54,018 nt of DNA from Candidatus Acidiferrales bacterium (GTDB lineage Bacteria; Acidobacteriota; Terriglobia; Acidiferrales; UBA7541), in assembly GCA_035264005.1 (NCBI GenBank), contig DATFQU010000349.1:1-54018 (forward strand), given 5' to 3'. Below, piece by piece: positions 16,847-52,009 of the stretch; position 1 is the stretch's first letter, and the number at the start of each line of letters is the position of its first letter. The translations under genes were made by a program, and so were the position numbers. Under the pieces are notes generated by a model. It was not told the origin of the DNA. It made no database searches and was given only the letters and a program-made list of their open reading frames with translations.

Positions 16847-16856
16847 TTCATTCCTC

Positions 16857-17564
16857 CTAAGAAGTGGCCCGGCGCTTGACAAGCAGGGCTACGCCGACTG
16901 CGACGAGAATCAGCGGCCAGAGATTCCCGATCCAACGCGAATCGAGCACGCCCGTCGTCGCGAGCAGGCAAAGGATGCCCACGACGATCAAAATGAGTGC
17001 CCCAGTGTAATTGCGCGTCGCCGTTGGAGCGCCCCCCGCTGGAACTCCCTCTGCCGTCACCGGAGGCGCGGTTTCGCCAAAGAAACCTGTGACGGGAACG
17101 CCAAGGCGTTTTGCGCGCGCGGTGCGGTATGCCTCAATGGGCATGTAACAACAAAAGACGCCCAAAAAGACGCCGAGCAGGGCTTGAAGACCTTCCGGGG
17201 TCGAGTTACTGCTCAGGATGGCGATGATCCCGCCGAAAATGATGACGTGAATCAGTCCCTTGATGTACTCGCCGTTGTAGACTGCTCCAAGCCCAGGAAT
17301 GAAACCCAGCGCGCAGGCTGTGCCAGGATTCGGGCCGTGCTGCGCAATGGCCGGCGCGTAAACGTATCCGGGAGGCGCGATCGGCGTCACGGGCGTGGTG
17401 GCAAACTGAGCTGCGGTTCCCTGCGGCGGCGCCATCATGCTGGCGAGGCACTGTTCGCAATACAGGGCGCCACGGACTTCGCGAGCGCATTGCGGGCAAA
17501 GGGGCTTACCGCAGTTGCGACAATAGCCGGTGGCGTCAACATCGGTGTGAACAGCGCATTTCAT
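16857..17564 (-). CDS. B-box zinc-finger membrane protein
   Basis: The N-terminus MKCAVHTDVDATGYCRNCGKPLCPQCAREVRGALYCEQCL is a Cys/His B-box-type zinc ribbon. It is followed by several TM helices and a C-terminal LiaF-like hairpin. The start overlaps the anti-sigma stop (ATGA at 17561..17564). Confidence 0.7.
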   Translation of the reverse strand: MKCAVHTDVDATGYCRNCGKPLCPQCAREVRGALYCEQCLASMMAPPQGTAAQFATTPVTPIAPPGYVYAPAIAQHGPNPGTACALGFIPGLGAVYNGEYIKGLIHVIIFGGIIAILSSNSTPEGLQALLGVFLGVFCCYMPIEAYRTARAKRLGVPVTGFFGETAPPVTAEGVPAGGAPTATRNYTGALILIVVGILCLLATTGVLDSRWIGNLWPLILVAVGVALLVKRRATS

Positions 17565-18202
17565 GGATTGCTCCTGTCCAGCGCGGTCGCAAAAAACGAA
17601 GCAGCGACGGAATAGCGGTCGGTGCCAAAGCTACGCTGCGATTGGCGCGGGGGCTTGGGTTGCTGTTGAGATGGCGTTTCGGAAGGCGCCTGCTGGTTCG
17701 GCGGATTGGCGCCCGGCTGCAAACGGGATTGAATCTCGTAGACGACGCGCAGGTCGTTCACAAACTTTACGCTGCGCGCAAAGGCAAGGTGCGCATGGCG
17801 GTCCGCGGAATGGATGATGTTCACGGGATTGAAGTCTGCCGCAGTGAGTTGCGACGGCTTCACGCCAGCTGCGTGAAAGATGATCAGCAGAGTCGCCAGC
17901 ACGGTGACTGCACCGGTTGCAAAGCGAGGGTTCCATATAATCGGAATCCAGCTGAACCATTGCCGCTTGGCTTTGCGCGGGGCGATCGTCTGGTCGAGGA
18001 TTCTCGACACAAGCATCGGCGGAGCTGGCTCAAGCTCCAGTCCGCGAAGGCTCTCGGTGATGTGGCTGACCTGCGCGAGCAAGGGAGCGCAATGCGCACA
18101 GGAGTCGACGTGGGCGCGAAACTCGAGGCGCTCCGCTTCGGTGAGCGCGTTATCGAGATAGTCGCTCAGCCGCTCTTCGACTTGGACGCAGCTCCAGCTC
18201 AT
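17561..18202 (-). CDS. anti-sigma factor (zf-HC2 type), single-pass membrane protein
   Basis: MSWSCVQVEERLSDYLDNALTEAERLEFRAHVDSCAHCAPLL carries the H-x3-C-x2-C anti-sigma zinc motif. It has a central TM helix (AVTVLATLLIIF). It lies 16 nt downstream of the ECF sigma gene. Confidence 0.8.
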   Translation of the reverse strand: MSWSCVQVEERLSDYLDNALTEAERLEFRAHVDSCAHCAPLLAQVSHITESLRGLELEPAPPMLVSRILDQTIAPRKAKRQWFSWIPIIWNPRFATGAVTVLATLLIIFHAAGVKPSQLTAADFNPVNIIHSADRHAHLAFARSVKFVNDLRVVYEIQSRLQPGANPPNQQAPSETPSQQQPKPPRQSQRSFGTDRYSVAASFFATALDRSNP

Positions 18203-18218
18203 TTGCCAGCCTTGTTGG

Positions 18219-18788
18219 TTACGATGGCCCGACTCCCATGTCCTGCAAAATACGTGCTAATTCGATGCGCCCGCGATTGATTCGGGATTTTACCGTACCT
18301 TCGGGCACGGAAAGAACCTGCTGAATCTCGACGTATTCCAAGCCCTGCAAGTCGCGAAGAATGACCGCTTCGCGCAACTCCGGCGAAAGGCGCGAAAGCG
18401 CTGATTGAACTTGCGCGCTCAGTTCCCGCGCCATGGCTGCTTTGTCCGGCGTGCGCACCGGTGAATGCTTCTCCTCGACCACCGGTAAAACGTCCTCCAG
18501 CGCGTCGGTCATGCGGTCGCGGCGTGAGCGACGGTAATGATCCACCAGAAGATTGCGCGTAACGCTGGTCAGCCACGTCGGAAAGCCACCGTAGGCTGTG
18601 CGGTAGCTTGCGAGCGTCTTGTAAATGCGCAGGAAAACTTCCTGGCTGAGGTCTTCCGCTTCGGACGAATTGTTGGTGAAGCGATAGCATAAACTGTAGA
18701 CGCGCCGCGCGTGGCGCCGCACAAGCTCCTCCCAGGCCGGCCCATCGCCCCGGAGGCATCGCTGGACCAGTTGGGCGTCCGCTTCCAA
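18219..18788 (-). CDS. ECF-type RNA polymerase sigma-70 factor
   Basis: 189 aa with sigma region 2 (AEDLSQEVFLRIYKTLASYR..FPTWLTSVTRNLLVDHYR) and region 4 (REAVILRDLQGLEYVEIQQVLSVPEGTVKSRINRGR). The start is TTG 18788, with gagga 9-10 nt upstream. Confidence 0.9.
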   Translation of the reverse strand: MEADAQLVQRCLRGDGPAWEELVRRHARRVYSLCYRFTNNSSEAEDLSQEVFLRIYKTLASYRTAYGGFPTWLTSVTRNLLVDHYRRSRRDRMTDALEDVLPVVEEKHSPVRTPDKAAMARELSAQVQSALSRLSPELREAVILRDLQGLEYVEIQQVLSVPEGTVKSRINRGRIELARILQDMGVGPS

Positions 18789-18834
18789 TCGTCATTTTCC
18801 TCACAGGGAACATGGCGTTCGGCCTCAATCTATG

Positions 18835-18861
18835 AAACGAGAAAAGTGGCCGAAAAGTTCC
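18835..18861 (-). promoter_or_regulatory. candidate autoregulated ECF promoter (GGAAC-N17-CGTTT)
   Basis: The reverse strand reads tgcGGAACttttcggccacttttctCGTTTcat, about 45 nt upstream of the sigma start codon. It matches the general ECF -35 GGAAC / -10 CGT architecture. Confidence 0.4.
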
Positions 18862-18958
18862 GCACCGTTGCGGCATCTTAGCTGTGTCAGGGATGTAAGA
18901 CAAGCGACACCTCCGGCCGGGTGGCCTGGGAGGTGCTTTTCAAGAATGGAGATGCAAG

Positions 18959-19471
18959 TCAGATAAACAGTTCTTCGTCGGGTTGCGTCACGGCCGCATT
19001 TCGTGCGCCGCGCTCTCCGCGTATGAAATCGATGCCTGTACGGATGCCCTTGAGGACTGCCGAGGCTTGCTGCAGCGGGCCAAAGACCGTCCGACGGAGG
19101 CGCAAGCCGGCATCCTCGACGGCCTCCAAGGTGCCCGTAATTATAGTGTCCGCGCGAATGATTTGGCTGCGCATGCGATCGAGCGAGTCCGTAACGACGC
19201 GGTCGATTTTCTGCGCCTGGTCACGCGCGAGACGGGTCATCTCCGCGGCATCGCTGACAATGCTGCCGATTTTCTCTTCGGAAGTTTCGAGGATTCGTCC
19301 AAACCGGAAAAGAAGAGGATCCATCTTTCTCTGCATTTCGTGGATCGCTTCATGGACTTCCTTGCTGGTTTGCCGAAATTGCAAAAACAGACCGCCCAGA
19401 ATGAGCATCTGCATTATGACCGCGATGGTGATGACGATGAAAATCGCGATCAACCAGCCGTTCACGAGCAT
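18959..19471 (-). CDS. DUF948-like membrane-anchored coiled-coil protein
   Basis: It has an N-terminal TM helix (LIAIFIVITIAVIMQMLILGGLFL) followed by a long helical region. It sits directly downstream of a YtxH-like gene, a pairing known from Firmicutes ytxG/ytxH loci. Confidence 0.45.
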   Translation of the reverse strand: MLVNGWLIAIFIVITIAVIMQMLILGGLFLQFRQTSKEVHEAIHEMQRKMDPLLFRFGRILETSEEKIGSIVSDAAEMTRLARDQAQKIDRVVTDSLDRMRSQIIRADTIITGTLEAVEDAGLRLRRTVFGPLQQASAVLKGIRTGIDFIRGERGARNAAVTQPDEELFI

Positions 19472-19495
19472 GAGCTTTTCTCGATTCTCGCAGCG

Positions 19496-19789
19496 TTACT
19501 GCGCTTTGGACCTCTCGCGCTGGTAGGTCTCCTTGCCGGCTTCCACCGCGGCGGCAATCGAACCCTTTTCGCGGTTCACGATTTCCTTGCTACGCTCGAT
19601 CAGATCCTCGGCGCGTTCGCGCAGTTCGCGCGCTTTCTTTTGAGCGTACTCCCGGCCTTCGTCGGCCTTTTGGGTCAAAAATTCGCGCGTCTCTTCGCCG
19701 GACTTCGGTGCGAACAGTATGCCCACCAGAGTTCCAATTCCCAGGCCCACGATGAAGTAGCTGATTTTCGCCCCAACGTTCTCTGCCAT
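19496..19789 (-). CDS. YtxH domain protein (general-stress-type small membrane protein)
   Basis: ATG 19789 is preceded by aggaggtg. The protein reads MAENVGAKISYFIVGLGIGTLVGILFAPKSGEETREFLTQKADE.... The LFAPKSG-ETR motif is the YtxH signature. Confidence 0.7.
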   Translation of the reverse strand: MAENVGAKISYFIVGLGIGTLVGILFAPKSGEETREFLTQKADEGREYAQKKARELRERAEDLIERSKEIVNREKGSIAAAVEAGKETYQRERSKAQ

Positions 19790-19921
19790 CTCGCACCTCC
19801 TAGCCAGCCAACGTAGCACACACACCCGAGGCAGGCAAGAAGGCTAAACTGTACATGCCCAAAGAATTTCGCTGTATCCATACGCTGCCGCATGGATGCA
19901 CGCGCTGCAAGCCCGAATTGC

Positions 19922-21805
19922 TCAGGACGCTGAGTTGCCCGCCGTGATGTTCTCGTGGAAAAAACTGTGGAGCCTTTCAGCCTTCGAACGCGGCAGTGCG
20001 GCGGCGAGTTCGTCCACGCTCATTTGCCTGAGGCGCGCGACGCTGCCAAATTTCTTCAATAATTTACGGGCGGTATGCTGGCCGATGCCGGGAACGCTGG
20101 TGAGCGAGGTGGCTACGCGGCTTTTGCTCCGGCGCTGGCGGTGAAACGTCACGGCGAAGCGGTGCGTTTCGTCGCGAATCTGCTGGATCACATGCAAGAT
20201 GGGCGAATGGTGGTCCAGGCGAATGGGATCGTTCTCGCGGCCCGCAACGTAGAGAATCTCTTCCTTTTTGGCGATGCTGGCGAGCGGTTGTTCAGGCAAT
20301 CCCAGGGTGTTCAGCGCTTCGGCCGCGGCGTGCAGTTGGCCAATTCCGCCGTCAATCAGAACCAGCGAGGGAAGCGAGGTTTTTTCTTCGATCAGTCTTC
20401 GGTAGCGCCGCGTTACGGCCTCGCGCATGCTGGCGAAATCGTCGCGCAAAAGTGAGTCTTCGGTTTCGCGAAGCTCGCCCGCCATGGCGGCATGTGCAGG
20501 CTGGTCCGTGGCACGGCCGCGAATGATGAACTTGCGATAGTCGGACTTCTTCATCTTTCCGTTTTCCCAAACGACCATGGATGCGACGGCATCCGATCCC
20601 TGAATGTGCGAAATGTCGAAGCTTTCGATGCGCTTGGGAGGCTCGGGCAGTCCGAGCGCCGCTGCCAGCGCTTCTGCTATCACTTCCGACGCGGGTTTCA
20701 TCACGCGAAAACGCTGATTGAAAGAATGCTTTGCGTTCGTCTCGACCAAATCGACGAGCGCGCGCTTTGCTCCCCGTTGCGGTGCGATGATTTCCACGCG
20801 ATGGCCGCTGTCTTCGGAAAATACTTCCTGCAGCAGTTCGCATTCCTCGAAGTTCACTGGCACGTGAATGAAGCGCGGAATGTATTTCGAGCCGAGGTAA
20901 ATCTGTTTGAGCAGAGAAGTGAGAAACTCCACAGGCTCGAATTCATCCAGGTCTTCCCAATAAAACTCTCGCCGGTCGACGACTCTCCCACTGCGAACGT
21001 GAAATAGATTCGCCGCGACCTGCGGAGGCTCGGCGTACCACGCCAGCACGTCGATATCTTCTCCGGCGGCGGCGGCGATCTTTTGACGCTCGTCCATGTC
21101 ATCGAGCGTGCGAATCAGGTTCCGGTAGCCAGTGGCGGCCTCAAATCGTTCGTCGTCAGAGGCGCGGTGCATGCGCCCTTCGAGGCTCTTCACCAGGTCT
21201 TTGCGGCGCCCTTCGAGAAACGTCCGCGTGTCATGCGCGGCCTCGGCGTAACGTTCTTCGAGCGTCTGGTTAGTTTCGGCCGGACCCAAGCTGCGGCTCA
21301 GATAGAATTCAATCCATGCGCGAGAGTGCGGCCGGTTCATCTCCATTTTTTCGGAAGGGATGCCAAAATAGCGGTTGATAAAGTGAACGATGCGATGTGC
21401 CAGGCTTGCCGGAAAGTAAGGGCCGAAGAAGAGCGAGCCGTTCTTTTCGAGCCGCCGCGTGACAAATACGCGCGGAAACTCTTCCGCGGCCGTGAAGCAA
21501 ATGTAAGGATACGTTTTGTCGTCGCGCAGCAGAACATTGAATTTTGGCTTGTTCTGCTTGATCAGATTGTTTTCGAGCGCCAGCGCCTCGCGCTCGTTGT
21601 CTACGACGATGTATTCGGCATCCGCTATTTCGCGGACCAGCGAGCCGGTTTTCGCATCGGATTGGCGCACCGCGAGAAAATAGGACTTCACGCGATGCCG
21701 TAGCGACTTCGCCTTGCCGACGTAAATGATCTTCTCCGCCGCGTCCTTGAAGAGATAGACGCCGGGCTCGAGCGGGAATTCAGCAACCTTTTCGCGCGGA
21801 TCCAT
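19922..21805 (-). CDS. uvrC: excinuclease ABC subunit C
   Basis: 627 aa. It has the GIY-YIG N-terminus (PGVYLFKDAAEKIIYVGKAKSLRHRVKSYF), a UVR domain, an RNase H-like endonuclease domain, and a C-terminal (HhH)2 (LTSVPGIGQHTARKLLKKFGS). Confidence 0.97.
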   Translation of the reverse strand: MDPREKVAEFPLEPGVYLFKDAAEKIIYVGKAKSLRHRVKSYFLAVRQSDAKTGSLVREIADAEYIVVDNEREALALENNLIKQNKPKFNVLLRDDKTYPYICFTAAEEFPRVFVTRRLEKNGSLFFGPYFPASLAHRIVHFINRYFGIPSEKMEMNRPHSRAWIEFYLSRSLGPAETNQTLEERYAEAAHDTRTFLEGRRKDLVKSLEGRMHRASDDERFEAATGYRNLIRTLDDMDERQKIAAAAGEDIDVLAWYAEPPQVAANLFHVRSGRVVDRREFYWEDLDEFEPVEFLTSLLKQIYLGSKYIPRFIHVPVNFEECELLQEVFSEDSGHRVEIIAPQRGAKRALVDLVETNAKHSFNQRFRVMKPASEVIAEALAAALGLPEPPKRIESFDISHIQGSDAVASMVVWENGKMKKSDYRKFIIRGRATDQPAHAAMAGELRETEDSLLRDDFASMREAVTRRYRRLIEEKTSLPSLVLIDGGIGQLHAAAEALNTLGLPEQPLASIAKKEEILYVAGRENDPIRLDHHSPILHVIQQIRDETHRFAVTFHRQRRSKSRVATSLTSVPGIGQHTARKLLKKFGSVARLRQMSVDELAAALPRSKAERLHSFFHENITAGNSAS

Positions 21806-40137: not shown

Positions 40138-41190
40138 CTAATTTCCTGAAACAGCCTGCGCGGTCGCCGTTGCACCAGGCGCATAGTATCCCGGCCGCGT
40201 GCGCACCGTGAGTTTTCCCTTGCCACCCACGCCCGTAAGTTCCACTTTCACGGTCCGGAAAGTCCCATTCCGCGCGTCATTCGACGGGTAGTAACCGACC
40301 ATGTATTGCGACCGGATATCCTGCGCGATGCGCGTGCAGATCGAGTCCACATCGTCGACCGTCTTTGGGAAAAACGCTTCGCCGCCGGAAGCATCGGTCA
40401 GCGCGAGCAAAGCCTTCTTGCCTTGCCGCATCTCCTCCCGTGAATCGTCATTTTTCGTGAACAGCCCCACGGCGTAAATCACCACGTTCGATTGCTCCAG
40501 CTTTTCCACCGTGTACGAAAGCGTATGCGCCTGAGCGCTGTCATGGTCCACGCCGTCCGTGACCACAAGCAGCACTTTTTTCTCGCGCGTGCCTTTTTTC
40601 AAATGATTCATCGACCCCAAAATCGCGTCGTACAGCGCCGTCCCGCCCCGCGAATCAATCCGCTCAAGCGCCGCCTTCAGTACCTTCGGATCGTTGGAAA
40701 AATCTTCATCCATGTCCAGATAATATTCGTCGTTGAAATTCACCACAAACATTTGGTCCTGTGGATTGCTGGTCTGCACAAAAGTCATCGCCGCCGCATT
40801 CACACGCGCGCGCTTCGACCTCATGCTGCCGCTGTTGTCGATCACCAGTCCCACGCTGATCGGAATGTCCGAGTGTGTGAATTGTGAGATTTTCTGCGGC
40901 GCTTTGTCTTCGAGCACTCGAAAATTGCCTTCCGTCAGCCCGCTTACGAAATTCCCGTCCTTGTCCACGATCGTCACCGGCAGCCGCACCATGTCCACAT
41001 TTTTCTTCATTGTGTACGGCGTGCTTTGGTTGGTTCCGTATGGCGGAGGGATTTGCGGGATCTGCGGATTTTGCGCGAACGCGCTGGTGCCGCCAAAGGC
41101 AATCATCGACAGCAACGCGACACTAACGGCTAAGAAGGGAAGGGGCCCTTTTCGTTCAACTGTGCGGCGCAAAATATCCGTAGCGTGCAT
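40138..41190 (-). CDS. VWA domain protein, acidobacterial VWFA-related type (TIGR03436-like), exported
   Basis: I prefer ATG 41190 (TTG 41172 is also possible); both overlap the end of the upstream paralogue. It has a signal peptide (PLPFLAVSVALLSMIAFGGTSAFA). It also has VDMVRLPVTIVDKDGNFVSGLTEGNFRVLEDKAPQ, the MIDAS-type segment VGLVIDNSGSM, and the C-terminal YMVGYYP...FRTVKVEL. Confidence 0.8.
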   Translation of the reverse strand: MHATDILRRTVERKGPLPFLAVSVALLSMIAFGGTSAFAQNPQIPQIPPPYGTNQSTPYTMKKNVDMVRLPVTIVDKDGNFVSGLTEGNFRVLEDKAPQKISQFTHSDIPISVGLVIDNSGSMRSKRARVNAAAMTFVQTSNPQDQMFVVNFNDEYYLDMDEDFSNDPKVLKAALERIDSRGGTALYDAILGSMNHLKKGTREKKVLLVVTDGVDHDSAQAHTLSYTVEKLEQSNVVIYAVGLFTKNDDSREEMRQGKKALLALTDASGGEAFFPKTVDDVDSICTRIAQDIRSQYMVGYYPSNDARNGTFRTVKVELTGVGGKGKLTVRTRPGYYAPGATATAQAVSGN

Positions 41191-42160
41191 AAACTGTGAG
41201 CGGAGGGAGTCCGCGCGGCGGGCGCAGCTTGACCTTGATTTTTCGCCATTTTCCATCGGTTTTTCGATCGCTCGGTCTGTATCCCAGCACATACTGGTTT
41301 CTCAGCTCCATGCTGATCTTCGTCGCCACATCACCCAAATCATCGAGATTGCGGACGATGAATGATCGGCCGCCCGTCATATCCGCCAGCCCTTGCAGGA
41401 AAGTGGGTCCGGCGCATTCTTCAGCAGTCCGGTCACAAGCGTCTGGGTCTACGATTCCAACCGCGTAAATCTGCACGTCCGACTCGCGCAGGAAGCGCTT
41501 GATATCTTCTTCATCGTACCTGCTGTGATTATCGCCTCCATCCGATATGATGAGCAAAGCTTTTCTCGCGTTGCGTGCTCCTTTCATCTCGCTCATTCCG
41601 AGATACACTGCATCAAGCAGTGCCGTCATTCCGCCCGGCGCGCTGAAGAGCAATTGATTTTGCAATTCCTCGACGCTCGTTGTGAAGGGCGTCGCGAGTT
41701 CTGCGCGGTCCGCGAAATCCACGAGGAAAAATTCATCTGCGGGATTCGCTGTCTTGAAAAATTGCACTGCGGCCATGCGCGATTTCGAAATCTTGTCCGA
41801 CATGCTGCCGCTGACGTCGAAGACCACGCCGATCGATATCGGAATATCGTCTTCCTCGAAGCGCATCAGTTGCTGTTCTTTTCCGTCTTCATACACGCGG
41901 AAGTTTTCGCGGTCGAGCCCCGTCACCAGCCGCCCGTACGGGTCCGTTACCGTCACGTCGACTGTGACCAGATTTACATCTTTTCTTACCGTATCTTCTT
42001 TGGAAACGTCACTCTTCGGAGGAGGTTTATAGATGAGAGGTCCCGATGTCGCGGGCACTTGCGCACACGCCGGGCCGCAAACCAGCATCAGAGCCGCCAG
42101 CGCTAGGCTCATCGCCCCTGCGGCCATCCATCTCGCATCCACTCTGCTGGCTGCGTTCAT
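41156..42160 (-). CDS. VWA domain protein, acidobacterial VWFA-related type (TIGR03436-like), exported
   Basis: It has a signal peptide (MSLALAALMLVCGPACA). It also has VNLVTVDVTVTDPYGRLVTGLDRENFRVYEDGKEQ, the MIDAS segment IGVVFDVSGSMS, and the C-terminal YVLGYRP...WRKIKVKL. Confidence 0.85.
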   Translation of the reverse strand: MNAASRVDARWMAAGAMSLALAALMLVCGPACAQVPATSGPLIYKPPPKSDVSKEDTVRKDVNLVTVDVTVTDPYGRLVTGLDRENFRVYEDGKEQQLMRFEEDDIPISIGVVFDVSGSMSDKISKSRMAAVQFFKTANPADEFFLVDFADRAELATPFTTSVEELQNQLLFSAPGGMTALLDAVYLGMSEMKGARNARKALLIISDGGDNHSRYDEEDIKRFLRESDVQIYAVGIVDPDACDRTAEECAGPTFLQGLADMTGGRSFIVRNLDDLGDVATKISMELRNQYVLGYRPSDRKTDGKWRKIKVKLRPPRGLPPLTVYARYGYFAPHS

Positions 42161-43420: not shown

Positions 43421-44125
43421 ATGAAACAAAAGACGTTTATAGGCATCGCAGTTGCCGCTCTCTTCCTGTTAATTATCGGCGCCGCTTCCCCAGCTAAGGC
43501 CGATTCCGTCAGTTTTAATTTTTCCGGAAACGTCTCAGGAGGAGCAGTAGCAGGGACGATCATGTTCGACGTAACTTCTGCGGGCGCTCTTACTGTCGCG
43601 ATCACCGACACCGAGGCGAATCCGGGTAATGTTGGGCAGTTGATCAGCGACCTCATGTTCAACGTATCAGGAATGACCGGAGCCGCAACCATGACGTCCA
43701 GCTCAGGTCAGGAAGTGAACATCGACGGGAGCGGAAATGCAACTCTAGGATCGATGGGCAACACCATGTGGGGAATTAACTCCAGTTCGAGCACCATCAT
43801 TCTTTCTGCGCTTCTTTCCGGTCCTTCGAATCTCATTATTGGCCCGGGCGGCGCCGGTGGGGTCTACACCAACGCCAACGGTTCCATCGCCGGCAACGGG
43901 CCTCACAATCCGTTTCTCTCAGGAACCGTCGACTTCAACTTGACAGTTCCGGGACTAACCTCGGTTAGTCAGCTTAGCAACATCATCGTTAGCTTTGGCA
44001 CCACTCCGGGAAGCAATCTGTCTGTAACTTCAACAACCACGCCTGAGCCGTCTTCTCTCCTTCTCCTGGGAACGGGACTGCTTGGTCTTGGATTCCTTGT
44101 GCGTCGCCGCACCGCCGTCTCATAA
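43421..44125 (+). CDS. PEP-CTERM sorting-domain protein (exported, function unknown)
   Basis: It has the signal peptide MKQKTFIGIAVAALFLLIIGAASPAKA. The C-terminus TTTPEPSSLLLLGTGLLGLGFLVRRR is a canonical PEP-CTERM anchor. No exosortase gene is in the window. Confidence 0.85.
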   Translation: MKQKTFIGIAVAALFLLIIGAASPAKADSVSFNFSGNVSGGAVAGTIMFDVTSAGALTVAITDTEANPGNVGQLISDLMFNVSGMTGAATMTSSSGQEVNIDGSGNATLGSMGNTMWGINSSSSTIILSALLSGPSNLIIGPGGAGGVYTNANGSIAGNGPHNPFLSGTVDFNLTVPGLTSVSQLSNIIVSFGTTPGSNLSVTSTTTPEPSSLLLLGTGLLGLGFLVRRRTAVS

Positions 44126-44165: not shown

Positions 44166-44217
44166 GGCCTGCTCTTCCCCCCGAGTTAGCTTTCTCGAGG
44201 AGCAGGCCTTCTTTTTT
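44166..44217 (+). terminator. probable rho-independent terminator after the PEP-CTERM gene
   Basis: ggcctgctc (44166..44174) pairs with gagcaggcc (44200..44208) and is followed by ttcttttttg. The loop is long and partly self-pairing. Confidence 0.6.
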
Positions 44218-44258
44218 GCTCAACTCGCCAAGCTCGCCTCCTTGGGCTCAAAAAAGGA

Positions 44259-44304
44259 ACTACGAAGATTTTCGTTGACAATACGAAAAGCTTCGTAGTA
44301 TAAG
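44259..44304 (+). promoter_or_regulatory. candidate BlaI operator (17-bp inverted repeat) overlapping a promoter; transcript probably leaderless
   Basis: ACTACGAAGATTTTCGT (44259..44275), then tgacaat, then ACGAAAAGCTTCGTAGT (44283..44299). The arms are complementary at 16 of 17 positions. TTGACA lies at 44275..44280, then an 18-nt spacer and TATAAG at 44299..44304. The ATG is at 44312 with no Shine-Dalgarno in between. Confidence 0.5.
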
Positions 44305-44311
44305 CGTCTTC

Positions 44312-44710
44312 ATGACACAGGCCACTCAATCGCATCATCTGAAGCCCACCGCCTCCGAACTGGAAATTCTCCGAATTCTGTGGACGCGCGGTCCTTCCAC
44401 GGTTCGTGAAGTTCACGAGGCTCTGCGCACGAAAAAAGATATTGGCTACACAAGCGTCCTCAAACTGCTTCAAATCATGACCGAGAAGGGAACTGTCCGC
44501 CGCGACGAAAATCAGCGCGCCCATGTCTATGAAGCCTGCGAACCTGCCGAAAAAACCAAGCGCGATCTCGCTGGCGATGTTTTGCAGCGCGTCTTCGAAG
44601 GTTCTGCCAGCCAGTTGATGCTTCACGCTCTCGCCGGCCATCCGACTTCTCGCCAAGAGATTAAGGAACTCCGCCGCATGCTCGACGAACACGAAAGGCA
44701 AATGCGATGA
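44312..44710 (+). CDS. BlaI/MecI/CopY family transcriptional repressor
   Basis: LKPTASELEILRILWTRGPSTVREVHEALRTKKDIGYTSVLKLLQIMTEKGTVRRDENQRAHVYEA. This is the winged-helix penicillinase-repressor fold pattern. The stop overlaps the start of the M56 gene (ATGA at 44707..44710). Confidence 0.9.
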   Translation: MTQATQSHHLKPTASELEILRILWTRGPSTVREVHEALRTKKDIGYTSVLKLLQIMTEKGTVRRDENQRAHVYEACEPAEKTKRDLAGDVLQRVFEGSASQLMLHALAGHPTSRQEIKELRRMLDEHERQMR

Positions 44711-47235
44711 CTCACATCTCCTCGTGGATTTCGCCGCAACTCGCTCACACTCTCGGCTGGGCGCTGCTGCATTTCATTTGGCAGGGAGTCGCTCTGGCCG
44801 CCATTTGCTACGCCCTCACGAGCGCTTACCGCACCGCGCTCGCGCGCTACGTGATTGCTCTCTCCACTCTTGTGCTGATGCTCGCCGCGCCGGTCGTCAC
44901 CTTCGTTGTTCTCCAGCAGGGCGCCGCATCCACTTCAACTTTTTCGACGGCTTTTCACGCTGGCAACAGCTCCGCAGCCGTGCCGCCCAGCGCATCGAAC
45001 TCCGCAGTTTCAGCCCCCGCTGCGAAAGTCTTCGACGCTCTCACTCTCTACAACGCTGCTTCAAATCGGCCTTTTCGGCCGGACACTCTGCTGTGGCTCG
45101 TTGAAGCTTGGTTCGCCGGAGTCGTTTTCTTCAGCCTTCGCACCGCTGGCGGCCTCGTCGTTGTCCATCGCATGCGCCGCAATCACACCCGTCCCGTTAC
45201 TGACGCCCTGCTCGCAAAATGCCTCGCGCTCCAGCGCCGCATACGCGTCTCGCGCGCGGTTCGTTACTGTGAATGCCTCGCTTTGGAAGCGCCCGCCGTT
45301 ATCGGCTGGTTCCGTCCCGTAGTTCTGCTTCCCGTCACCGCGCTCAGCGGCCTTTCTGAAGATCAGCTCTCTGCGGTCATCTCTCACGAACTCGCGCACA
45401 TTCGCCGTCTCGATTGCTTCGTCAATCTTTTTCAGATCGCTACCGAAACGCTGCTTTTCTATCATCCCGCTGTTTGGTGGCTGAACAAGCGCATCCGTAA
45501 CGAACGCGAAAATTGCTGCGATGACGCCGCGCTCGCCGTTTGCGGCAATCCCATCGAATACGCCCGCGCTCTCACGCTCATGGAAGAGTGGCGCCAGCGT
45601 CCCGCGCTCGCTATGGCCGCAAATCGCAGCCCGCTCGTCGAACGCGTCGCGCGCTTGCTCGGCATCGCCTCTCCGCGCAGTGGAATTCGCAGCGCAGGCG
45701 TCGCCGCCAGCATCCTCTGCCTCGCCGGAGCGCTTCTCGCCGCCAACGGCCTCATGGCTGCAGGGCATTCTTCATCAACCCTCATTGGCAATCTGTACGC
45801 CTCAGCGCAAGACTCCGGGTCTTCGTCCCACCATCAACAGGAGGGACCTTTCGTTGCCGCTTCACGTCTCACAGTTTCTACAGCGTCGCGCGTGACCAAG
45901 TCCATCGTGTCTCGTCTAGTCGCTGCCGCCGCTCCTGCGCGCGCGTATGTTCCTCAGACCAATGGTGCCGACATGCAATCTCAGGAAGGCCAGGGGCAGG
46001 GCGAGGGTCACGGCGTCGGCCAGGGCGAAGGCCAATCCACATCCTCCTCTTCTTACGTCGACCAACTCAAATCCCAAGGCTATGACAATCTCACCGCCGA
46101 CGAACTCATCAGCCTCAAAGTCCAGGGCGTCACTCCCGAATACATCAGCCAAATCAAAGCCCTCGGCCTCCATCCCACGATCAGCCAACTCATCTCCATG
46201 CGCGTCCAGGGCATCACTCCCCAATATGTCAAAGAGATGCGCGACGCTGGCTTCAACTCCGACATCAATCAGCTCATTTCGATGCGCGTTCAGGGCATCA
46301 CTCCTGACTATGTCCGCGAAATGCGCGCGGCCGGTGTCAACGGCGATGCAAACGAATTCATCAGCATGAAGGTCCAGGGCCTCGACGCCGGATACATTAA
46401 AGACATGAAGGCCGCCGGCGTTGACGCCAGCACTCGTCAACTCATCGGCATGAAGGTTCAAGGCCTTACGCCGGAATACGTAAAAGAAATGAAGGCCGCC
46501 GGAGTCACCGTCGACACGAATCAATTGATCGGAATGAAAGTGCAGGGCCTAGATCCCGAATATGTAAAGGATATGAAGGCGGCCGGAATCAACGCCAGCG
46601 CGAATCAGCTCATCGGCATGAAGGTTCAAGGTCTCACTCCGGAATACGTCAAGGAAATGAAAGCCGCCGGCATCGATGCCGATGCGAATCAATTGATCGG
46701 TATGCGAGTTCAAGGCCTCGATCCCGAATATGTTAAAGACATGAAAGCCGTAGGCGTGAACGCTGACGCTGGGCAGCTCATTGGCATGAAAGTCCAGGGA
46801 CTGACGCCCGACTACGTGAAGGAAATGCGCGCGGTGGGTGTCACCGCCGACACCAATCAACTGATCGGTATGAAAGTGCAGGGCCTCGATGCCGAATATG
46901 TGAAAGACATGAAGGCTGCCGGCGTCACTGCCGATACCAGTCAGCTCATCGGTATGAAAGTCCAGGGCCTCGATGCTGAGTATGTCAAGGGAATCAAAGC
47001 CACGGGCATCAACGCCAGCACCAATCAGCTCATCGGCATGCGCGTCCAAGGCGTCACGCCCGAATACATCAAGTCCTTGCAGAGCGCCGGCCTGCAGAAT
47101 CTAAGTGCCGAAGATTGCATTCGCGCCCGCGTTCAGGGTGTTACGCCTGAGTTCATCAACGAAGCGCGCAGTCACGGCTTCAAGGACTTGACGCTCGACA
47201 AGCTCATCGATCTCAAAAACGCCGGCGTCTTTTAG
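44707..47235 (+). CDS. BlaR1/MecR1-like M56 family membrane metalloprotease with a non-canonical C-terminal repeat-array domain
   Basis: It has the N-terminal LLHFIWQG motif, HELAH (45385..45399) followed by IRRLD, and FYHPAVWWLNKRIRNERENCCD, all M56 hallmarks. A further TM helix follows (ASILCLAGALLAANGLMAAG), then a Ser/Gly/Gln-rich linker, then about 13 tandem 28-aa units. Confidence 0.9.
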   Translation: MTHISSWISPQLAHTLGWALLHFIWQGVALAAICYALTSAYRTALARYVIALSTLVLMLAAPVVTFVVLQQGAASTSTFSTAFHAGNSSAAVPPSASNSAVSAPAAKVFDALTLYNAASNRPFRPDTLLWLVEAWFAGVVFFSLRTAGGLVVVHRMRRNHTRPVTDALLAKCLALQRRIRVSRAVRYCECLALEAPAVIGWFRPVVLLPVTALSGLSEDQLSAVISHELAHIRRLDCFVNLFQIATETLLFYHPAVWWLNKRIRNERENCCDDAALAVCGNPIEYARALTLMEEWRQRPALAMAANRSPLVERVARLLGIASPRSGIRSAGVAASILCLAGALLAANGLMAAGHSSSTLIGNLYASAQDSGSSSHHQQEGPFVAASRLTVSTASRVTKSIVSRLVAAAAPARAYVPQTNGADMQSQEGQGQGEGHGVGQGEGQSTSSSSYVDQLKSQGYDNLTADELISLKVQGVTPEYISQIKALGLHPTISQLISMRVQGITPQYVKEMRDAGFNSDINQLISMRVQGITPDYVREMRAAGVNGDANEFISMKVQGLDAGYIKDMKAAGVDASTRQLIGMKVQGLTPEYVKEMKAAGVTVDTNQLIGMKVQGLDPEYVKDMKAAGINASANQLIGMKVQGLTPEYVKEMKAAGIDADANQLIGMRVQGLDPEYVKDMKAVGVNADAGQLIGMKVQGLTPDYVKEMRAVGVTADTNQLIGMKVQGLDAEYVKDMKAAGVTADTSQLIGMKVQGLDAEYVKGIKATGINASTNQLIGMRVQGVTPEYIKSLQSAGLQNLSAEDCIRARVQGVTPEFINEARSHGFKDLTLDKLIDLKNAGVF
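46102..47232 (+). repeat. in-frame tandem repeat array, 84-bp (28-aa) period, about 13 units, inside the M56 gene
   Basis: The unit consensus is QLIGMKVQGLTPEYVKEMKAAGVxxDxN. Units start at 46102, 46186, 46270, 46354, 46438, 46522, 46606, 46690, 46774, 46858, 46942 and 47026. The last units have a 29-aa period. Confidence 0.9.
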
Positions 47236-47455
47236 TTTTAGTAGCGCAGAGCTGCGCCTTTCTGCAGTTCTGCGGCTTTCGTTGTTGCTTTTCCGGGTGC
47301 CCCATCCTTCGCGGCCGGGCTGCGGCAAGCAGCCCAAAGTGAAGGAGTCACGAAAGGTGGGATCTTCGCCCTTGAATTCGGACTCAGGAAGGCTTCTCGT
47401 TCTTTTTGTTTCGCTGTTTTTCTCGGACCAACTGCCTTTGAAAGGAGTATCCGTC

Positions 47456-48604
47456 ATGGGATCGAAAATCCGCATTCTCAGCCCAAGGTCAATCACCACC
47501 GCGCTCGCAGCTTGCGCCGCAGCCGTCTGCCTGCTTCTCGTCGGCGCAAGAACTCTCCGCGCTCAAACGCCCAACGGCACTTGGGCGATGACTAGCTCCG
47601 ACCGCCCCGGCTACGTCCAATTCTCCCTGACCGTCTCGCGCCCCGGCCATCACATGCAGGAAGAATCCGACTGGCCTCTCATCTCCTTCCAAGGCCTCGA
47701 CACCTCCAACAAAGCGCGCCACGACGTCAAATTCAACGTCACCCGCGATGCCGGCCGTCTCGATTTCGACGGCTTCCTCGAAAACGGCGAAGGCGCCGGC
47801 GTCTTCCACTTCTTCGCCGACTCAAAATATCCTCAGGAAATGTCCTCGCTCGGCTTCGACGGCATCGACGCCGAAAAGCAATTCGCCATGGCCATGCATG
47901 ACGTTAGCCTCGACTTCGCGCGTCAAATGAAAGCCGAACACATCTCCGGCCTCGACACAGACAAACTCATCGCCTTCCGGATTTTCGGTGTCGACAAAAA
48001 ATTCATCGACGACCTCCGCTCGTCCGGCCTCAACATCACCGACAGTGACAAGCTCGTCGCCTTCCGCATCCACGGAGTCACGCCCGAAATGGTCCGCGCC
48101 CTTCACCAGCAGGGATACTCGCCCGATGAAGACACTCTCATCGCTCTCCGCATCCACGGCGCAACTTCCGACTGGATCCAGCAAATGTCCCAGGCCGGCT
48201 ATTCCCACGTCGACCTCGAGAAACTCATCGCCTTCCGGATTCACGGTGTTTCACCCGACTTCGTCGCGCAACTCAGTCACTTCGGTTATACGCATCTTGA
48301 TCCCGACGAGCTCATCGCTTTTCGCATCCATGGAGTGTCTCCCGATTTCGTCGCGCAACTCGACCATTACGGCTACTCGCGTCTCGACGCCGACACGCTC
48401 GTTAACTTCCGCATTCACGGCGTCTCGCCCGAATTCGTCGCCGCTCTCGACAAGCTCGGCTACCATCATCCTGAGCCCGACCAGCTCGTAGACATGTGCA
48501 TACACGGCGTCACAGCACAATACATCTCCGGCCTGCGCTCCCGTGGCATGCAAAACCTCACCATCGATCAGCTCGTCAACATGCGCATCCACGGCATCGA
48601 CTGA
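47456..48604 (+). CDS. exported protein with N-terminal unknown domain and 8-9 copies of a 29-aa variant of the BlaR1-array repeat
   Basis: ATG 47456 is preceded by aaaggag. It has the signal peptide MGSKIRILSPRSITTALAACAAAVCLLLVGARTLRA. The repeats include DKLVAFRIHGVTPEMVRALHQQGY..., EKLIAFRIHGVSPDFVAQLSHFGYTHLDP, DELIAFRIHGVSPDFVAQLDHYGYSRLDA, and others. Confidence 0.75.
   Translation: MGSKIRILSPRSITTALAACAAAVCLLLVGARTLRAQTPNGTWAMTSSDRPGYVQFSLTVSRPGHHMQEESDWPLISFQGLDTSNKARHDVKFNVTRDAGRLDFDGFLENGEGAGVFHFFADSKYPQEMSSLGFDGIDAEKQFAMAMHDVSLDFARQMKAEHISGLDTDKLIAFRIFGVDKKFIDDLRSSGLNITDSDKLVAFRIHGVTPEMVRALHQQGYSPDEDTLIALRIHGATSDWIQQMSQAGYSHVDLEKLIAFRIHGVSPDFVAQLSHFGYTHLDPDELIAFRIHGVSPDFVAQLDHYGYSRLDADTLVNFRIHGVSPEFVAALDKLGYHHPEPDQLVDMCIHGVTAQYISGLRSRGMQNLTIDQLVNMRIHGID
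47876..48601 (+). repeat. in-frame tandem repeat array, about 87-bp (29-aa) period, 8-9 units
   Basis: The unit consensus is (D/E)xL(I/V)xFRIHGV(S/T)P(D/E)FVxxLxxxGYxxhxx. The first unit (KQFAMAMHDVSLDFARQMKAEHISGLDTD) is degenerate and the last is truncated (DQLVNMRIHGID). Confidence 0.8.
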
Positions 48605-49078: not shown

Positions 49079-52009
49079 ATGAAAGGAACAGGACCAATTC
49101 GCATGTTCAAGAATCTGGTTTCATTTTGCATAATTGCATTCATCGCAGCATTTTTTGCTCTTATCGGCCAATCCACCACGAGCGCCCAAACTTCGAGGAT
49201 TGGCGCAACCATCGAGGGAACTGTCACCGACAACACTGGTGCAGTCGTGCCGCAGGCCATCATCGTCATCCGCAACATCCCAACGGGCCAGTCCCGCACT
49301 CTCAGGGCCGACGACCGCGGCTTTTTTCGCGCCGAGCAGCTTCCTGTGAGCACTTACGAGGTCAGCGTCAACCATTCCGGGTTCGCTTCCTATCGGCAAA
49401 GCAGTTTTGACTTGACCCTCGGACAGGTCGTCCACCTGAGCATCGTTCTCGCGCTCGCGTCCGCATCACAACAAGTGACCGTCAACGCCCAGCCGTCCGC
49501 CATCGACACCACTCAAACCTCCGTCGTTTCTTCAGTCGACCAGGAACGCATCGAAGAGCTTCCCGTGCGCAGCCGCAACTACCTCGACTTTGTCCTTCTC
49601 GCGCCCGGCGTTTCCAACGCGCCATCCTCATCGCTTCCAAGCGGTTCCACTCTGCCGAGCAGCGGCTTCACCTTCGGCGGCCTCCGCTCGCAAAGCAACA
49701 ACGTCTCCATCGACGGCCTCGACAACAATGACGAATACACCGGCTCCAGTCGCACAGAACTTTCCCCGGAAATCGTCCAGGAATTCCAGGTCGTCAACAA
49801 CGGGCTTTCCGCGGAATCAGGCGGAGCTTCAGGCGGCTCGATTAACGTCATCACGCGCTCCGGCGCAAACGTTATTCATGGCGACGCATTCATCTTCGCT
49901 CAAGACAGCGCCGTCAATGCGCGTGACCCCTTCGAGACCGAGCCGGAGAAGCCGTCCTTTCGTCGTTTTCGCGCGGGTTTCGCTTTGGGCGGGCCAATCG
50001 TGAAGGACCGAACCTTTTACTATGTCGCCGGCGAACAGGAGCACAACCGCGGACAGATCGGCTCAGACATCGACCCTGCCGTCGCAGCCGCAATCAATCC
50101 GTTCCTCGCCTCCGGAGCGTTTCCCGGCTTACCTACGCGCCAGATCACAACCGCATTTTCGCCCATCGCTCGCGCGGAGACTGAGGCCGCAGGCAAGCTC
50201 GACCACCAGCTTACTAAGAACACCGCGCTCATGCTTCGCTACGCCTTTACCAACAATAAAGAAGCAGGCGACGCATTCAACACCGGCGGTCTGATGGACG
50301 CCAGTTCGCGCGGCAGCAGCTTCACAAGTGACAACTCTCTTTCTGGCTCACTGACAACCGTGCTCGCCTCGCAAGCAGTCAGCGACCTCCGCTTTCAAGC
50401 AGCTACGCGCCGCGCTGTCTTGCGAACGAACCAGCCCTTCGGCTCCGAAATCGACATCGCCGGCCTGGCCACCTTTGGCCGTCCTTACGCCGGAAATAAC
50501 GACCGTCGCGAAAATCACTATCAGCTCGTCTACTCCTATGCTCGCACGAAAAACAAGCACCTTTGGAAAGTGGGCGCAACCATCAACCGTGTCAGGCTCC
50601 GCGCGGACGTGCCCGACGGCTTTGGCGGCGCGTATCTCTTCGGCTCCGTTGCCGATTTTCTTGCCGCCAATCCTGACCAATTCCGCCAGAGCTTTGGAAG
50701 TTCGCACCTGGATTTCCCCGTCACGAGCCTTGGCGGCTTCGCGCAAGATCATTGGTCGCTCTCGCATCAGCTCACGCTCGACATCGGCATGCGCTACGAT
50801 TTCGAGCATTTGCCCTCCGGATTCAACGAGGACACCAACAACTTCAGCCCGCGCATCGGTCTCGCGTGGAGTCCTTCAGCCAAGTGGGTTTTCCGTGGAG
50901 GATACGGAGTCTTCTTCGATCGCTTCGTGTTGGCCAACCTGACGCGCGCAATTGAAAAAAATGGCGTGCAGGCGTTCGAGCAGGTTGCTGACGGAAGTAC
51001 GGCCGCAGGTCTCTTCACGTCAGCGCAAGGCGGCCCATTACTCGCGCCAGCGATCGGAATCGCGCCGTCCATTTTCAGCCCCGACCCTGCGATGGCCACA
51101 CCCTATAGCCAGCAAGCCAGTGCCGGTGCTGAGTATCTCCTTGCCAAAAATCTCACCGTTCGCGCCGATTATCTCTTCGTTCACGGCGTCAAGCTGCCTC
51201 GCACGCTCAACGCGAACCTGCTGCCTCCGATAATTCTGGCGCCCGCAAACGCTGCCGGCCTCGGCGTTCCGAATCCCACGGCGCAACAACTCGGCAGGGA
51301 AGTTTTCTCTCCGGCTCGGCTCAATCCGCAATTCGACGGCGTCTATCAATTGCAGGATTCCGCCGATTCCACCTACAACGGCGTTTCATTCACCCTCAGC
51401 CGCACCATGAATGAGGAATTGGAATTTTCCGCGAGTTATACGCTTTCGAAAACTTACGATAACGCTTCTAACTACGACGAGCAGCCGCAGAATCCTTTCG
51501 ACCTTTCCGCCGAACGCGCTCTCTCGCTCCAGGACCAGCAGCAGCGCTTCGTGTTCAACGCGCTGTGGGATTTGCCCATCGGCCCCGACGAAGACAGTCC
51601 CCAACAATCAACCAAGAATAGCGGCTGGCTGACCAAGACTTTCAGTCACATCGAAGTCGCGCCGATTTTCACCGCGGAGAGCGGCCGTCCCGTCAATCCG
51701 CTGACGGGCCTTGACTCGAACGAGAGCCACGCCTTTCCGCTATCGGGCCGCCCGCTCGCTTTCGGACGCGACTCGTTAATGACACCCGCAACGGTGACCA
51801 TGGATCTTCGCGTGTTGAAATATTTTCCCTTCGGCGAATATAAGCATCTGGACGTTGTCGCCGAGTCATTCAATCTCTTGAACCACGCAAACGTTGCTCA
51901 AATCAATCCCGTGTTCGGTTCAGCTCTCATGCCGATGGCGGGATTCCGCGAACCCATCGAAGGCACCGGCGCCCGCCAAATCCAATTCTCTTTGGACTTC
52001 GAGTTCTGA
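49079..52009 (+). CDS. TonB-dependent outer-membrane receptor with N-terminal carboxypeptidase-regulatory-like domain
   Basis: It has a signal peptide (start ATG 49079 or 49103). The CarboxypepD_reg-like module is GATIEGTVTDNTGAVVPQAIIVIRNIPTGQSRTLRADDRGFFRAEQLPVSTYEVSVNHSGF. The plug motifs are RSRNYLDFVLLAPGV and FGGLRSQSNNVSIDGLDNND. The beta-barrel ends in a C-terminal aromatic residue (...FSLDFEF). Confidence 0.9.
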   Translation: MKGTGPIRMFKNLVSFCIIAFIAAFFALIGQSTTSAQTSRIGATIEGTVTDNTGAVVPQAIIVIRNIPTGQSRTLRADDRGFFRAEQLPVSTYEVSVNHSGFASYRQSSFDLTLGQVVHLSIVLALASASQQVTVNAQPSAIDTTQTSVVSSVDQERIEELPVRSRNYLDFVLLAPGVSNAPSSSLPSGSTLPSSGFTFGGLRSQSNNVSIDGLDNNDEYTGSSRTELSPEIVQEFQVVNNGLSAESGGASGGSINVITRSGANVIHGDAFIFAQDSAVNARDPFETEPEKPSFRRFRAGFALGGPIVKDRTFYYVAGEQEHNRGQIGSDIDPAVAAAINPFLASGAFPGLPTRQITTAFSPIARAETEAAGKLDHQLTKNTALMLRYAFTNNKEAGDAFNTGGLMDASSRGSSFTSDNSLSGSLTTVLASQAVSDLRFQAATRRAVLRTNQPFGSEIDIAGLATFGRPYAGNNDRRENHYQLVYSYARTKNKHLWKVGATINRVRLRADVPDGFGGAYLFGSVADFLAANPDQFRQSFGSSHLDFPVTSLGGFAQDHWSLSHQLTLDIGMRYDFEHLPSGFNEDTNNFSPRIGLAWSPSAKWVFRGGYGVFFDRFVLANLTRAIEKNGVQAFEQVADGSTAAGLFTSAQGGPLLAPAIGIAPSIFSPDPAMATPYSQQASAGAEYLLAKNLTVRADYLFVHGVKLPRTLNANLLPPIILAPANAAGLGVPNPTAQQLGREVFSPARLNPQFDGVYQLQDSADSTYNGVSFTLSRTMNEELEFSASYTLSKTYDNASNYDEQPQNPFDLSAERALSLQDQQQRFVFNALWDLPIGPDEDSPQQSTKNSGWLTKTFSHIEVAPIFTAESGRPVNPLTGLDSNESHAFPLSGRPLAFGRDSLMTPATVTMDLRVLKYFPFGEYKHLDVVAESFNLLNHANVAQINPVFGSALMPMAGFREPIEGTGARQIQFSLDFEF

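Follow-up and report, generated by a model that had tools for sequence, protein, structure and literature searches.

Three genes that together make up a regulatory module of the BlaI/BlaR1 type occupy positions 44312 to 48604 on the forward strand of contig DATFQU010000349.1 (assembly GCA_035264005.1, Candidatus Acidiferrales bacterium), a stretch of 54,018 nucleotides (nt) referred to here as the window. They encode a repressor, a zinc protease of family M56 whose predicted extracytoplasmic part is an array of short helical repeats, and a secreted partner protein built partly from the same repeat, and they are preceded by a promoter into which two putative operators are embedded. The product of the first gene (44312-44710), a winged-helix repressor of 132 amino acids (aa) of the BlaI/MecI type, matches PF03965 (Penicillinase_R) in Pfam with E=8.2e-27 over profile positions 2-115 of 115. 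Its closest solved relatives in a PDB sequence search are M. tuberculosis BlaI (2g9w, E=4e-11) and MecI (1okr, E=1e-7). An ATGA overlap joins its stop codon to the start of the M56 gene. CopY-type copper repressors carry a Cys-rich metal site, CxCxxxxCxC, at their C-terminus; the C-terminus encoded here, ...RRMLDEHERQMR, contains no Cys and the protein scores 55 bits with TIGR02698 against a cut-off of 122, so that an assignment to the CopY type was rejected.

The promoter block upstream of blaI reads TACGAAGATTTTCGT-TGACA-A-TACGAAAAGCTTCGTA-GTATAAG. Searches for inverted repeats and by pattern located two palindromes in it. Operator 1, TACGAAGATTTTCGTT (44261-44276), is a TACGAA-N4-TTCGT palindrome that overlaps the -35 hexamer TTGACA (44275-44280) and is invariant in 10/10 related loci. 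Operator 2, TACGAAAAGCTTCGTA (44282-44297), is a perfect TACGAA-N4-TTCGTA palindrome located in the promoter spacer, and the -10 region (TAGTAT/TATAAG), placed by sequence and by locus comparison, lies at 44296-44304. Both promoter elements are on the forward strand, and the -35 hexamer is kept in all related loci but one, where it reads TTGGCA. The ATG of blaI is found 7-10 nt past the -10 region and is not preceded by a Shine-Dalgarno sequence, and in all loci compared the spacing from TAGTA(T/G) to the ATG is 9-11 nt. Because this short spacing is conserved and a Shine-Dalgarno sequence is missing, the blaI transcript probably has little or no leader.

The operator/promoter block, 40 nt long, is nearly unchanged in 10/10 loci with unrelated flanking DNA and with proteins only about 50-80% identical. 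Within the 54-kb window, no sites other than operators 1 and 2 fit the operator pattern with one mismatch or none. In 793 kb of fetched DNA, consisting of loci with short flanks, single exact operators lie at blaI promoters in every case (131/131), and base composition predicts 0.02. The TAC...GTA palindromes overlap the promoter of their own operon, as expected for the predicted operators of BlaI/MecI/CopY repressors. The cassette operator has the outer TAC/GTA in common with the BlaI-family consensus TACANNTGTA (PMC7253601) and differs from it in being a 16-bp TACGAA-N4-TTCGTA site. Neither in the window nor in the 793 kb was a separate operator found for the partner or for neighbouring genes, and hence the partner would be expressed from the BlaI-controlled promoter. 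An earlier note on this DNA had placed the three open reading frames (ORFs) at the coordinates given here, had recognised in the first a repressor of the BlaI/MecI/CopY type overlapping the M56 gene by ATGA, and had indicated a promoter at 44275-44304. All of this is borne out, the promoter as TTGACA at 44275-44280 and TATAAG at 44299-44304; the two operators had gone unnoted.

The second gene (44707-47235) encodes a protein of 842 aa, of which residues 27-315 match PF05569 (Peptidase_M56) with E=3.5e-29. The protease core, with four transmembrane (TM) segments, is encoded by 44707-45762 and contains the motifs LLHFIWQG, HELAH at residue 227 (codons 227-231, 45385-45399) and ENCCD at residue 268 (codons 268-272, 45508-45522). 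Hydropathy places the TM segments at residues of about 16-37, 49-67, 135-153 and 332-350, which fits the four-TM layout of BlaR1. A search of the core against PDB sequences gave nothing at E<=1e-3, and the exact sequence of the window's M56 protein was not on record in the look-up. After the last TM segment comes a Ser/Gly/Gln-rich low-complexity linker, presumably extracytoplasmic (residues 353-464, 45763-46098), that is not conserved in homologues. The remainder of the protein (residues 465-842, 46099-47235) is the array, in which hidden Markov models (HMMs) and Tandem Repeats Finder (TRF) delimit 13 in-register units of 28 aa, each of two helices, plus a terminal partial unit; the units are of the type termed here Gln-type (KVQG). 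The features that the earlier note had described for the M56 protein, namely the BlaR1 hallmarks and an ectodomain formed by a linker and about 13 units of 28 aa, are thus all present. The array is regular far beyond chance: TRF returns DNA periods of 84 and 168 nt, that is, a two-unit (168-nt) super-period. Since the units share 53-79% DNA identity, with higher values at lags of two and four units than at lags of one and three, the array appears to be old and to have grown in two-unit blocks.

The third gene (47456-48604), with AAAGGAG 8 nt upstream, encodes the partner, a protein of 382 aa with a Sec-type signal peptide at residues 1-35 (47456-47560) that ends in ...LRA and is followed by QT. 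The partner had been described as a secreted paralogue built of the repeat, and the signal peptide and about eight homologous units of 29 aa agree with that description; the protein does not consist of repeats alone, however, as it carries a beta domain at its N-terminus. This domain of 85 residues (about 40-122, 47573-47821) is predicted to have six strands forming two three-stranded meanders, and in the alignment it is marked by an invariant RDAG...G.GEGAG motif. The AlphaFold2 (AF2) model, built with an alignment of 26 sequences, has a mean pLDDT of 92 and a pTM of 0.83, and the strands lead straight into the helical units. The domain matches no curated family, and a Foldseek search with it against the PDB gave only weak matches to CBF-beta, lipocalin and PilB-N, with TM-scores <0.35. 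The array that follows (47822-48604), delimited by BLASTP, AF2 and HMM, is of the His-type (RIHGV) and has about seven regular units of 29 aa besides two degenerate ones; the HMM counts 8. It contains 16 His residues, and AF2 predicts it from the single sequence with pLDDT 85-94 and two helices per unit. BLASTP aligns the M56 array with the partner at E=1e-43 and about 25% identity, and both arrays are acidic overall, with an isoelectric point (pI) of ~5.4-5.7. Both are predicted to be periplasmic, the M56 array because it comes after the last TM segment, where BlaR1 has its sensor domain, and the partner because of its signal peptide.

The gap of 220 nt between the M56 and partner genes is unusually long. 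Directly past the M56 stop codon, at 47245-47274 on the forward strand, it contains a GC-rich hairpin with a weak T tail, to which the GC-rich palindromes GCGCAGAGCTGCGC and CTGCAGTTCTGCGG belong. Among the three close relatives of this cassette, L001-L003, the palindromes are common to L001 and not to L002 or L003. The hairpin could be a partial terminator or an element of the repetitive extragenic palindromic (REP) kind; a role as a conserved attenuator was rejected, since it is shared by L001 only.

The repeat unit fits no named repeat family, as the earlier note had held. Scans of the arrays with Pfam and NCBIfam returned nothing above threshold, and the sub-threshold matches to DUF2639, Decapeptide, LYTB, DUF732 and HHH_5 were treated as noise caused by summation over repeats. 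The array has no match among PDB sequences even at E<=10. In a Foldseek comparison of the array model with the PDB no natural neighbour with a meaningful TM-score was found, the best match being a designed helical repeat (E=2.7e-4, TM-score 0.32), with TALE-like BurrH and mTERF at E>=1. For TPR, Sel1, ankyrin, LRR and other named solenoids there was neither a Pfam or NCBIfam profile match nor a fold match. The pattern of the unit is a helix, a G-h-[TSD]-P hairpin and a second helix, and the likeness that came up is to the helix-hairpin-helix (HhH) motif of PF14520. Both are helix, Gly hairpin, helix elements of about 28 aa with weak profile similarity over the hairpin and the second helix, and (HhH)2 domains likewise show a two-unit super-period. 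The array units differ in lacking the second hairpin glycine, and the arrays differ in being acidic, predicted periplasmic and devoid of a DNA-related context. With PF14520 (HHH_5) the window's M56 protein reaches 20.8 bits, below the cut-off of 27, and none of its stretches is significant by itself; some relatives score 28-35 bits, always through summed weak unit matches marked 'faint'. A distant HhH-like origin of the unit is plausible; membership of the HhH family is not established. PF25859 ('MT0599') is listed for many homologues, through precomputed matches marked 'faint', and source annotations of the homologues read 'M56 family metallopeptidase', 'beta-lactamase regulating signal transducer' or 'hypothetical protein'. 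The weak HhH likeness and the faint PF25859 matches are thus all that links the unit to characterised families. In literature searches no description was found of the repeat, the beta domain, the secreted paralogue, the fused and split forms treated below, or the TACGAA-N4-TTCGTA dual operator, and nothing specific was found on PF25859 or on M56 or BlaI in Acidobacteria.

The array matches at least 3,578 cluster representatives, nearly all of them M56 proteins of about 650-680 aa from Acidobacteriota (Sulfotelmatobacter, Acidoferrum, Acidiferrales). The order blaI, M56-array gene, partner gene is found in all loci read, four of them reached via the partner and five via diverse M56 homologues, and the flanking genes are wholly different among these loci. 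Since the same gene order is maintained amid unrelated flanks, the trio is a self-contained cassette. Linkage was counted in metagenome contigs chosen by DNA pattern alone, the exact dual-operator pattern occurring in at least 120 contigs, and the counts from this operator-selected sample take only loci with enough downstream DNA. Downstream of the operator BlaI is encoded in 105/105 loci, the M56 core in 61/63, repeat units in 41/43 and the partner beta domain in 31/31. Units, beta domain and partner were counted by HMM, and M56 by a single-sequence HMM combined with a position filter, of which the two misses (L091 and L110) were resolved by reading the ORFs and are genuine M56 genes. The linkage of array-bearing M56 proteins to BlaI and to the partner, on which the earlier reading depended, is therefore present essentially always. 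In most loci the gap between the M56 and partner genes is 2-84 nt, a spacing that fits co-transcription and stoichiometric production.

The usual proteins of the cassette are shorter than those of the window, the M56 array having about 8 units and the partner about 314 aa with 5-6 units. Both arrays are expanded in the window and in L001-L003, to 11-14 units in M56 and 7-8 in the partner, and across clades the unit numbers of the two proteins vary together (M56/partner 11-14/7-8, 7-9/5-6 and 0-2/0). Two further loci combine the dual operator and the BlaI type of the cassette with M56 proteins of another build. The M56 ectodomain is a polysaccharide deacetylase in L041 (contig Ga0066699_10039012; PF01522, E=5e-13) and is Pro-rich in L091. 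As these M56 proteins carry other ectodomains, the operator/repressor type is common to sensors of different specificity.

The relation between the partner and the M56 protein is made clearer by proteins in which both are joined. A profile of the beta domain and first units was searched against 1.84 billion representatives with a threshold of E<=1e-3 and matched 3,182 proteins, which are cluster representatives at 50% identity; this exhaustive search was used in place of a word-indexed homologue search with the partner beta domain, which had given 35 matches, mostly fragments. Most of the matching proteins are stand-alone and secreted; a sizeable minority consists of M56 proteins, 680-1125 aa long, whose last TM segment is directly followed by the beta domain and a His-type array (P0222, P0163 and P0211 were read; P0205 and others were assigned by Pfam and HMM). 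P0222 belongs to candidate division Zixibacteria, and its locus has blaI behind TACGAATATATTCGTA, which is the same palindrome, and no partner gene downstream. The beta domain is absent from 120/120 M56 proteins closest to the window's array. Because beta domain and array are fused to M56 elsewhere and the 120 split-type M56 proteins are without the beta domain, the partner corresponds, as a separate protein, to the entire sensor ectodomain of other lineages, and the gene-fusion argument suggests that it functions together with M56.

The arrays of the two proteins are also distinguishable by their units. An alignment by class (745 units of split-type M56 proteins, 191 of stand-alone partners and 55 of fused sensors) shows one discriminating position, position 9, the last residue of the first helix before the hairpin glycine. 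It is Gln in 96% of the units of split-type M56 arrays, His in 90% of those of stand-alone partners and His in 94% of those of fused sensors. In the operator-selected sample 54 loci have a Gln-type M56 array, 5 a His-type one and 1 a mixed one, and position 9 of the partner units is His in 183/218 and Phe in the other 35. The window conforms fully to the prevailing arrangement: position 9 is Gln in all 13 units of its M56 array, and in the partner one Phe precedes 6 His. Since it is the partner that carries the His-type array of the fused sensors, whereas the M56 array has a derived Gln form, ligand recognition looks more like a task of the partner than of the M56 array. Two arrangements depart from the common one. 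P0170 (569 aa) is a single secreted chain with two tandem beta-plus-array modules, the first Gln-type and the second His-type. L035 (contig Ga0209027_1000457) encodes two tandem partner paralogues of 380 and 308 aa next to a His-type M56 array of RDHGVS units.

Taking these results together, we propose a model in which the receptor is divided between two proteins. By homology with BlaI/BlaR1, BlaI dimers would bind the two TACGAA-N4-TTCGTA operators and repress blaI, the M56 gene and the partner gene; an extracytoplasmic signal would render the cytoplasmic zinc-protease domain of M56 active, and the protease would then cleave BlaI, leading to derepression of the operon. In place of a penicillin-binding domain, M56 would display a periplasmic alpha-solenoid of 28-aa helix-hairpin-helix-like units. 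The secreted partner, with its beta domain and His-type array, would be the second half of the split receptor, docking array against array and giving the beta domain and the ladder of His residues in trans, in a manner comparable to the periplasmic binding proteins that serve some sensor kinases. That the partner physically works with the M56 array is suggested by the fusions, the obligatory linkage, the short gaps, the shared periplasm and the co-variation of unit numbers. We give about even chances to the whole of this reading, in which the region is an autoregulated three-gene cassette of the BlaIR family and the partner docks on the M56 array as the ligand-recognising half of a split sensor. 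The earlier note had left the partner as a co-sensor, a decoy or a target, and the M56 fusions of other lineages narrow these options towards the co-sensor. Its more general proposal, a switch by regulated proteolysis of the BlaI/BlaR1 type that responds to a non-beta-lactam signal, is supported as far as sequence can tell, and the signal would not be a beta-lactam.

Several points weigh against this reading. The Asn-Phe of the cleavage site of S. aureus BlaI is not kept, the window having His-Ala there in the alignment with MecI. The co-variation of unit numbers between M56 and partner comes from two or three independent events only. Gene fusion indicates a functional link and is silent on whether the free partner activates or inhibits. 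A strict rule of Gln in M56 and His in the partner had to be rejected, as four split loci (L024, L035, L074 and L089) have a His-type M56 array; the fifth His-type locus, L131, is fused. In L023 and L088 the partner is the beta domain alone (148-149 aa), and in the M56 protein a long Pro/Lys-rich linker of the PKEPK type is followed by few, degenerate units, of which 0-2 can be recognised. As partners are kept there without an array, array-to-array docking cannot be the sole mode of interaction. Finally, gene order, homology, operator conservation, the fused forms and the predicted folds are direct results; the contact between partner and M56 is one that we infer, together with DNA binding, BlaI cleavage and the direction of regulation.

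The same observations may be read with the opposite sign. CpxP acts on CpxA as an inhibitor, and the partner may similarly be a periplasmic feedback inhibitor that binds the M56 array and holds the protease off, with the signal removing or destroying the partner and induction replenishing it and so resetting the switch. Such a role would agree with the predicted expression of the partner from the BlaI-controlled promoter, by which its level would rise on induction, with its homology to the M56 ectodomain and universal linkage to it, and with the Gln and His arrays, which would suit a heterotypic complex. The fused proteins, however, contain the module covalently within the sensor, a situation easier to square with sensing than with a titratable inhibitor, and we hold inhibition to be unlikely, although it is a serious contender.

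The partner might also be the output of the system, either as an induced periplasmic effector or as a decoy that binds or buffers the molecule detected by the M56 array. It is the sole conserved non-regulatory gene, no other operator was found nearby, and L035 carries two partner paralogues. There is a precedent in C. difficile, where the gene just downstream of cenIR, a non-canonical BlaIR pair, encodes CDR_0474, a small exported protein and the most strongly induced target of CenIR (PMC13492132). On the other hand, the fused M56-beta-array proteins show the module as a sensor ectodomain, the tight gene spacing suggests stoichiometric co-production, and the fold gives no hint of an enzymatic or transport activity. 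We therefore consider an output role rather unlikely.

A bolder proposal concerns the chemistry of the ladders. The unit and the beta domain would constitute an undescribed sensor module that occurs fused or split, and the reversible assembly of the secreted His ladder with the Gln ladder on the protease would be set by protonation of the His residues at low pH or by metal, making the cassette a pH or metal sensor of Acidobacteriota in acid soils, with repressor proteolysis as its way of signalling. We put this forward as a distinctly improbable, speculative idea.

More doubtful still is the possibility that the arrays are polymer-binding or spacer modules, anchoring the proteins to an envelope or matrix component such as extracellular DNA (eDNA), which HhH-like hairpins would bind, peptidoglycan or exopolysaccharide so that the system reports damage to the envelope or matrix. 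The summed weak PF14520 matches (20.8 bits in the window and up to 35 in relatives), the variable length of the arrays and the polysaccharide deacetylase domain on another M56 protein behind the same operator would fit such anchoring. Against it, no single unit is significant against the HhH model, the units have another residue in place of the second glycine of the canonical HhH hairpin, the acidic arrays (pI ~5.4-5.7) are unfavourable for DNA binding, and there is no PDB fold match to HhH arrays.

A classical BlaR1/BlaI resistance module that senses beta-lactams is refuted by the domain content and has a practically negligible probability, as it has in its favour only the transferred annotation 'beta-lactamase regulating signal transducer', and the M56 protein has no PF00905 penicillin-binding/transpeptidase domain, scores 77.6 bits against a cut-off of 400 with NF000326 (BlaR1), over residues 57-281 only, and 22.8 against 1200 with the MecR1 model, and no beta-lactamase or penicillin-binding protein (PBP) gene is linked in any locus read.

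Likeness to the BlaI/BlaR1 and MecI/MecR1 systems of S. aureus and B. licheniformis lies in the PF03965 repressor gene, directly upstream of and translationally coupled to that of a four-TM M56 protease with HExxH and ExxxD motifs, and in the TAC...GTA palindromic operators over the promoter of what would be an autoregulated operon. The cassette differs from those systems in that its ectodomain is a linker and a 28-aa helical array with no penicillin-binding sensor domain, in its obligatory third, secreted gene and in having no linked resistance gene. The proposed interplay of the partner with a membrane protein has parallels in LuxP-LuxQ, TorT-TorS and CpxP-CpxA, where a soluble periplasmic partner encoded adjacently delivers the ligand to a membrane transducer or inhibits it. 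In those pairs the transducer is a histidine kinase with an ectodomain to which the partner is not related, whereas the cassette has a protease and a partner paralogous to its ectodomain.

CenIR of C. difficile, BlaIR of M. tuberculosis and M. abscessus and PvmSR of P. aeruginosa likewise combine a BlaI with an M56 protein without transpeptidase domain and respond to non-beta-lactam signals (PMC13492132; bioRxiv 10.64898/2026.08.03.742534). In those systems the ectodomain is short, missing altogether or disordered by prediction, whereas that of the cassette is, in the models, a large and confidently folded solenoid. The exported protein encoded downstream is a further likeness to CenIR; that of the cassette differs in being a paralogue of the sensor ectodomain, to which it is fused in other lineages. 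In a survey of ~15,000 M56 proteins about 6% have a transpeptidase domain, the largest class is that with 'no identifiable domain', and about 96% are encoded near a BlaI gene (PMC13492132). Published work also shows that most BlaIR systems do not sense beta-lactams and that their ectodomains are diverse (PMC13492132; see also the PvmSR preprint, bioRxiv 10.64898/2026.08.03.742534). The cassette is abundant, sharply defined and experimentally approachable; since many BlaIR systems were already known to respond to something other than beta-lactams, it is not categorically new. Sensor and signal are understood for almost none of the non-beta-lactam BlaIR switches, and the cassette gives a defined structure to a large part of that class, with a new repeat fold, a conserved secreted partner and a nearly invariant operator/promoter usable as a reporter. 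It offers a tractable entry to the question of how Acidobacteriota, a phylum that is dominant in soil but little studied, perceive signals, and, if the proposed docking is true, its M56 protein would be the first BlaR-type protease needing a soluble co-receptor.

Directly upstream of the cassette, at 43421-44125 on the forward strand, lies the gene of a PEP-CTERM/XDD4-like exosortase-dependent surface protein, a neighbour common to L003 only; a hairpin with a 12-bp stem and a T run (44166-44218) probably ends this gene. Downstream, a forward-strand gene (49079-52009) encodes 976 aa with a carboxypeptidase-regulatory-like N-terminus and a TonB-dependent-receptor-like barrel at the C-terminus, as judged from the translation only, and this neighbour is not conserved in the other loci. 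Scanning the window for Rfam families and for tRNA genes gave no match. The cumulative GC skew over positions 1-54018 climbs to about 18 kb, with its peak near 16000-20000, and then falls steadily, a turn that could stem from genes changing their orientation or from a replication landmark. Further upstream of the cassette, at 40138-42160 on the minus strand, two tandem genes encode paralogous secreted proteins that, from their translations only, are von Willebrand factor A-like, with a DxSGSM motif and a C-terminal ...GYYAP.

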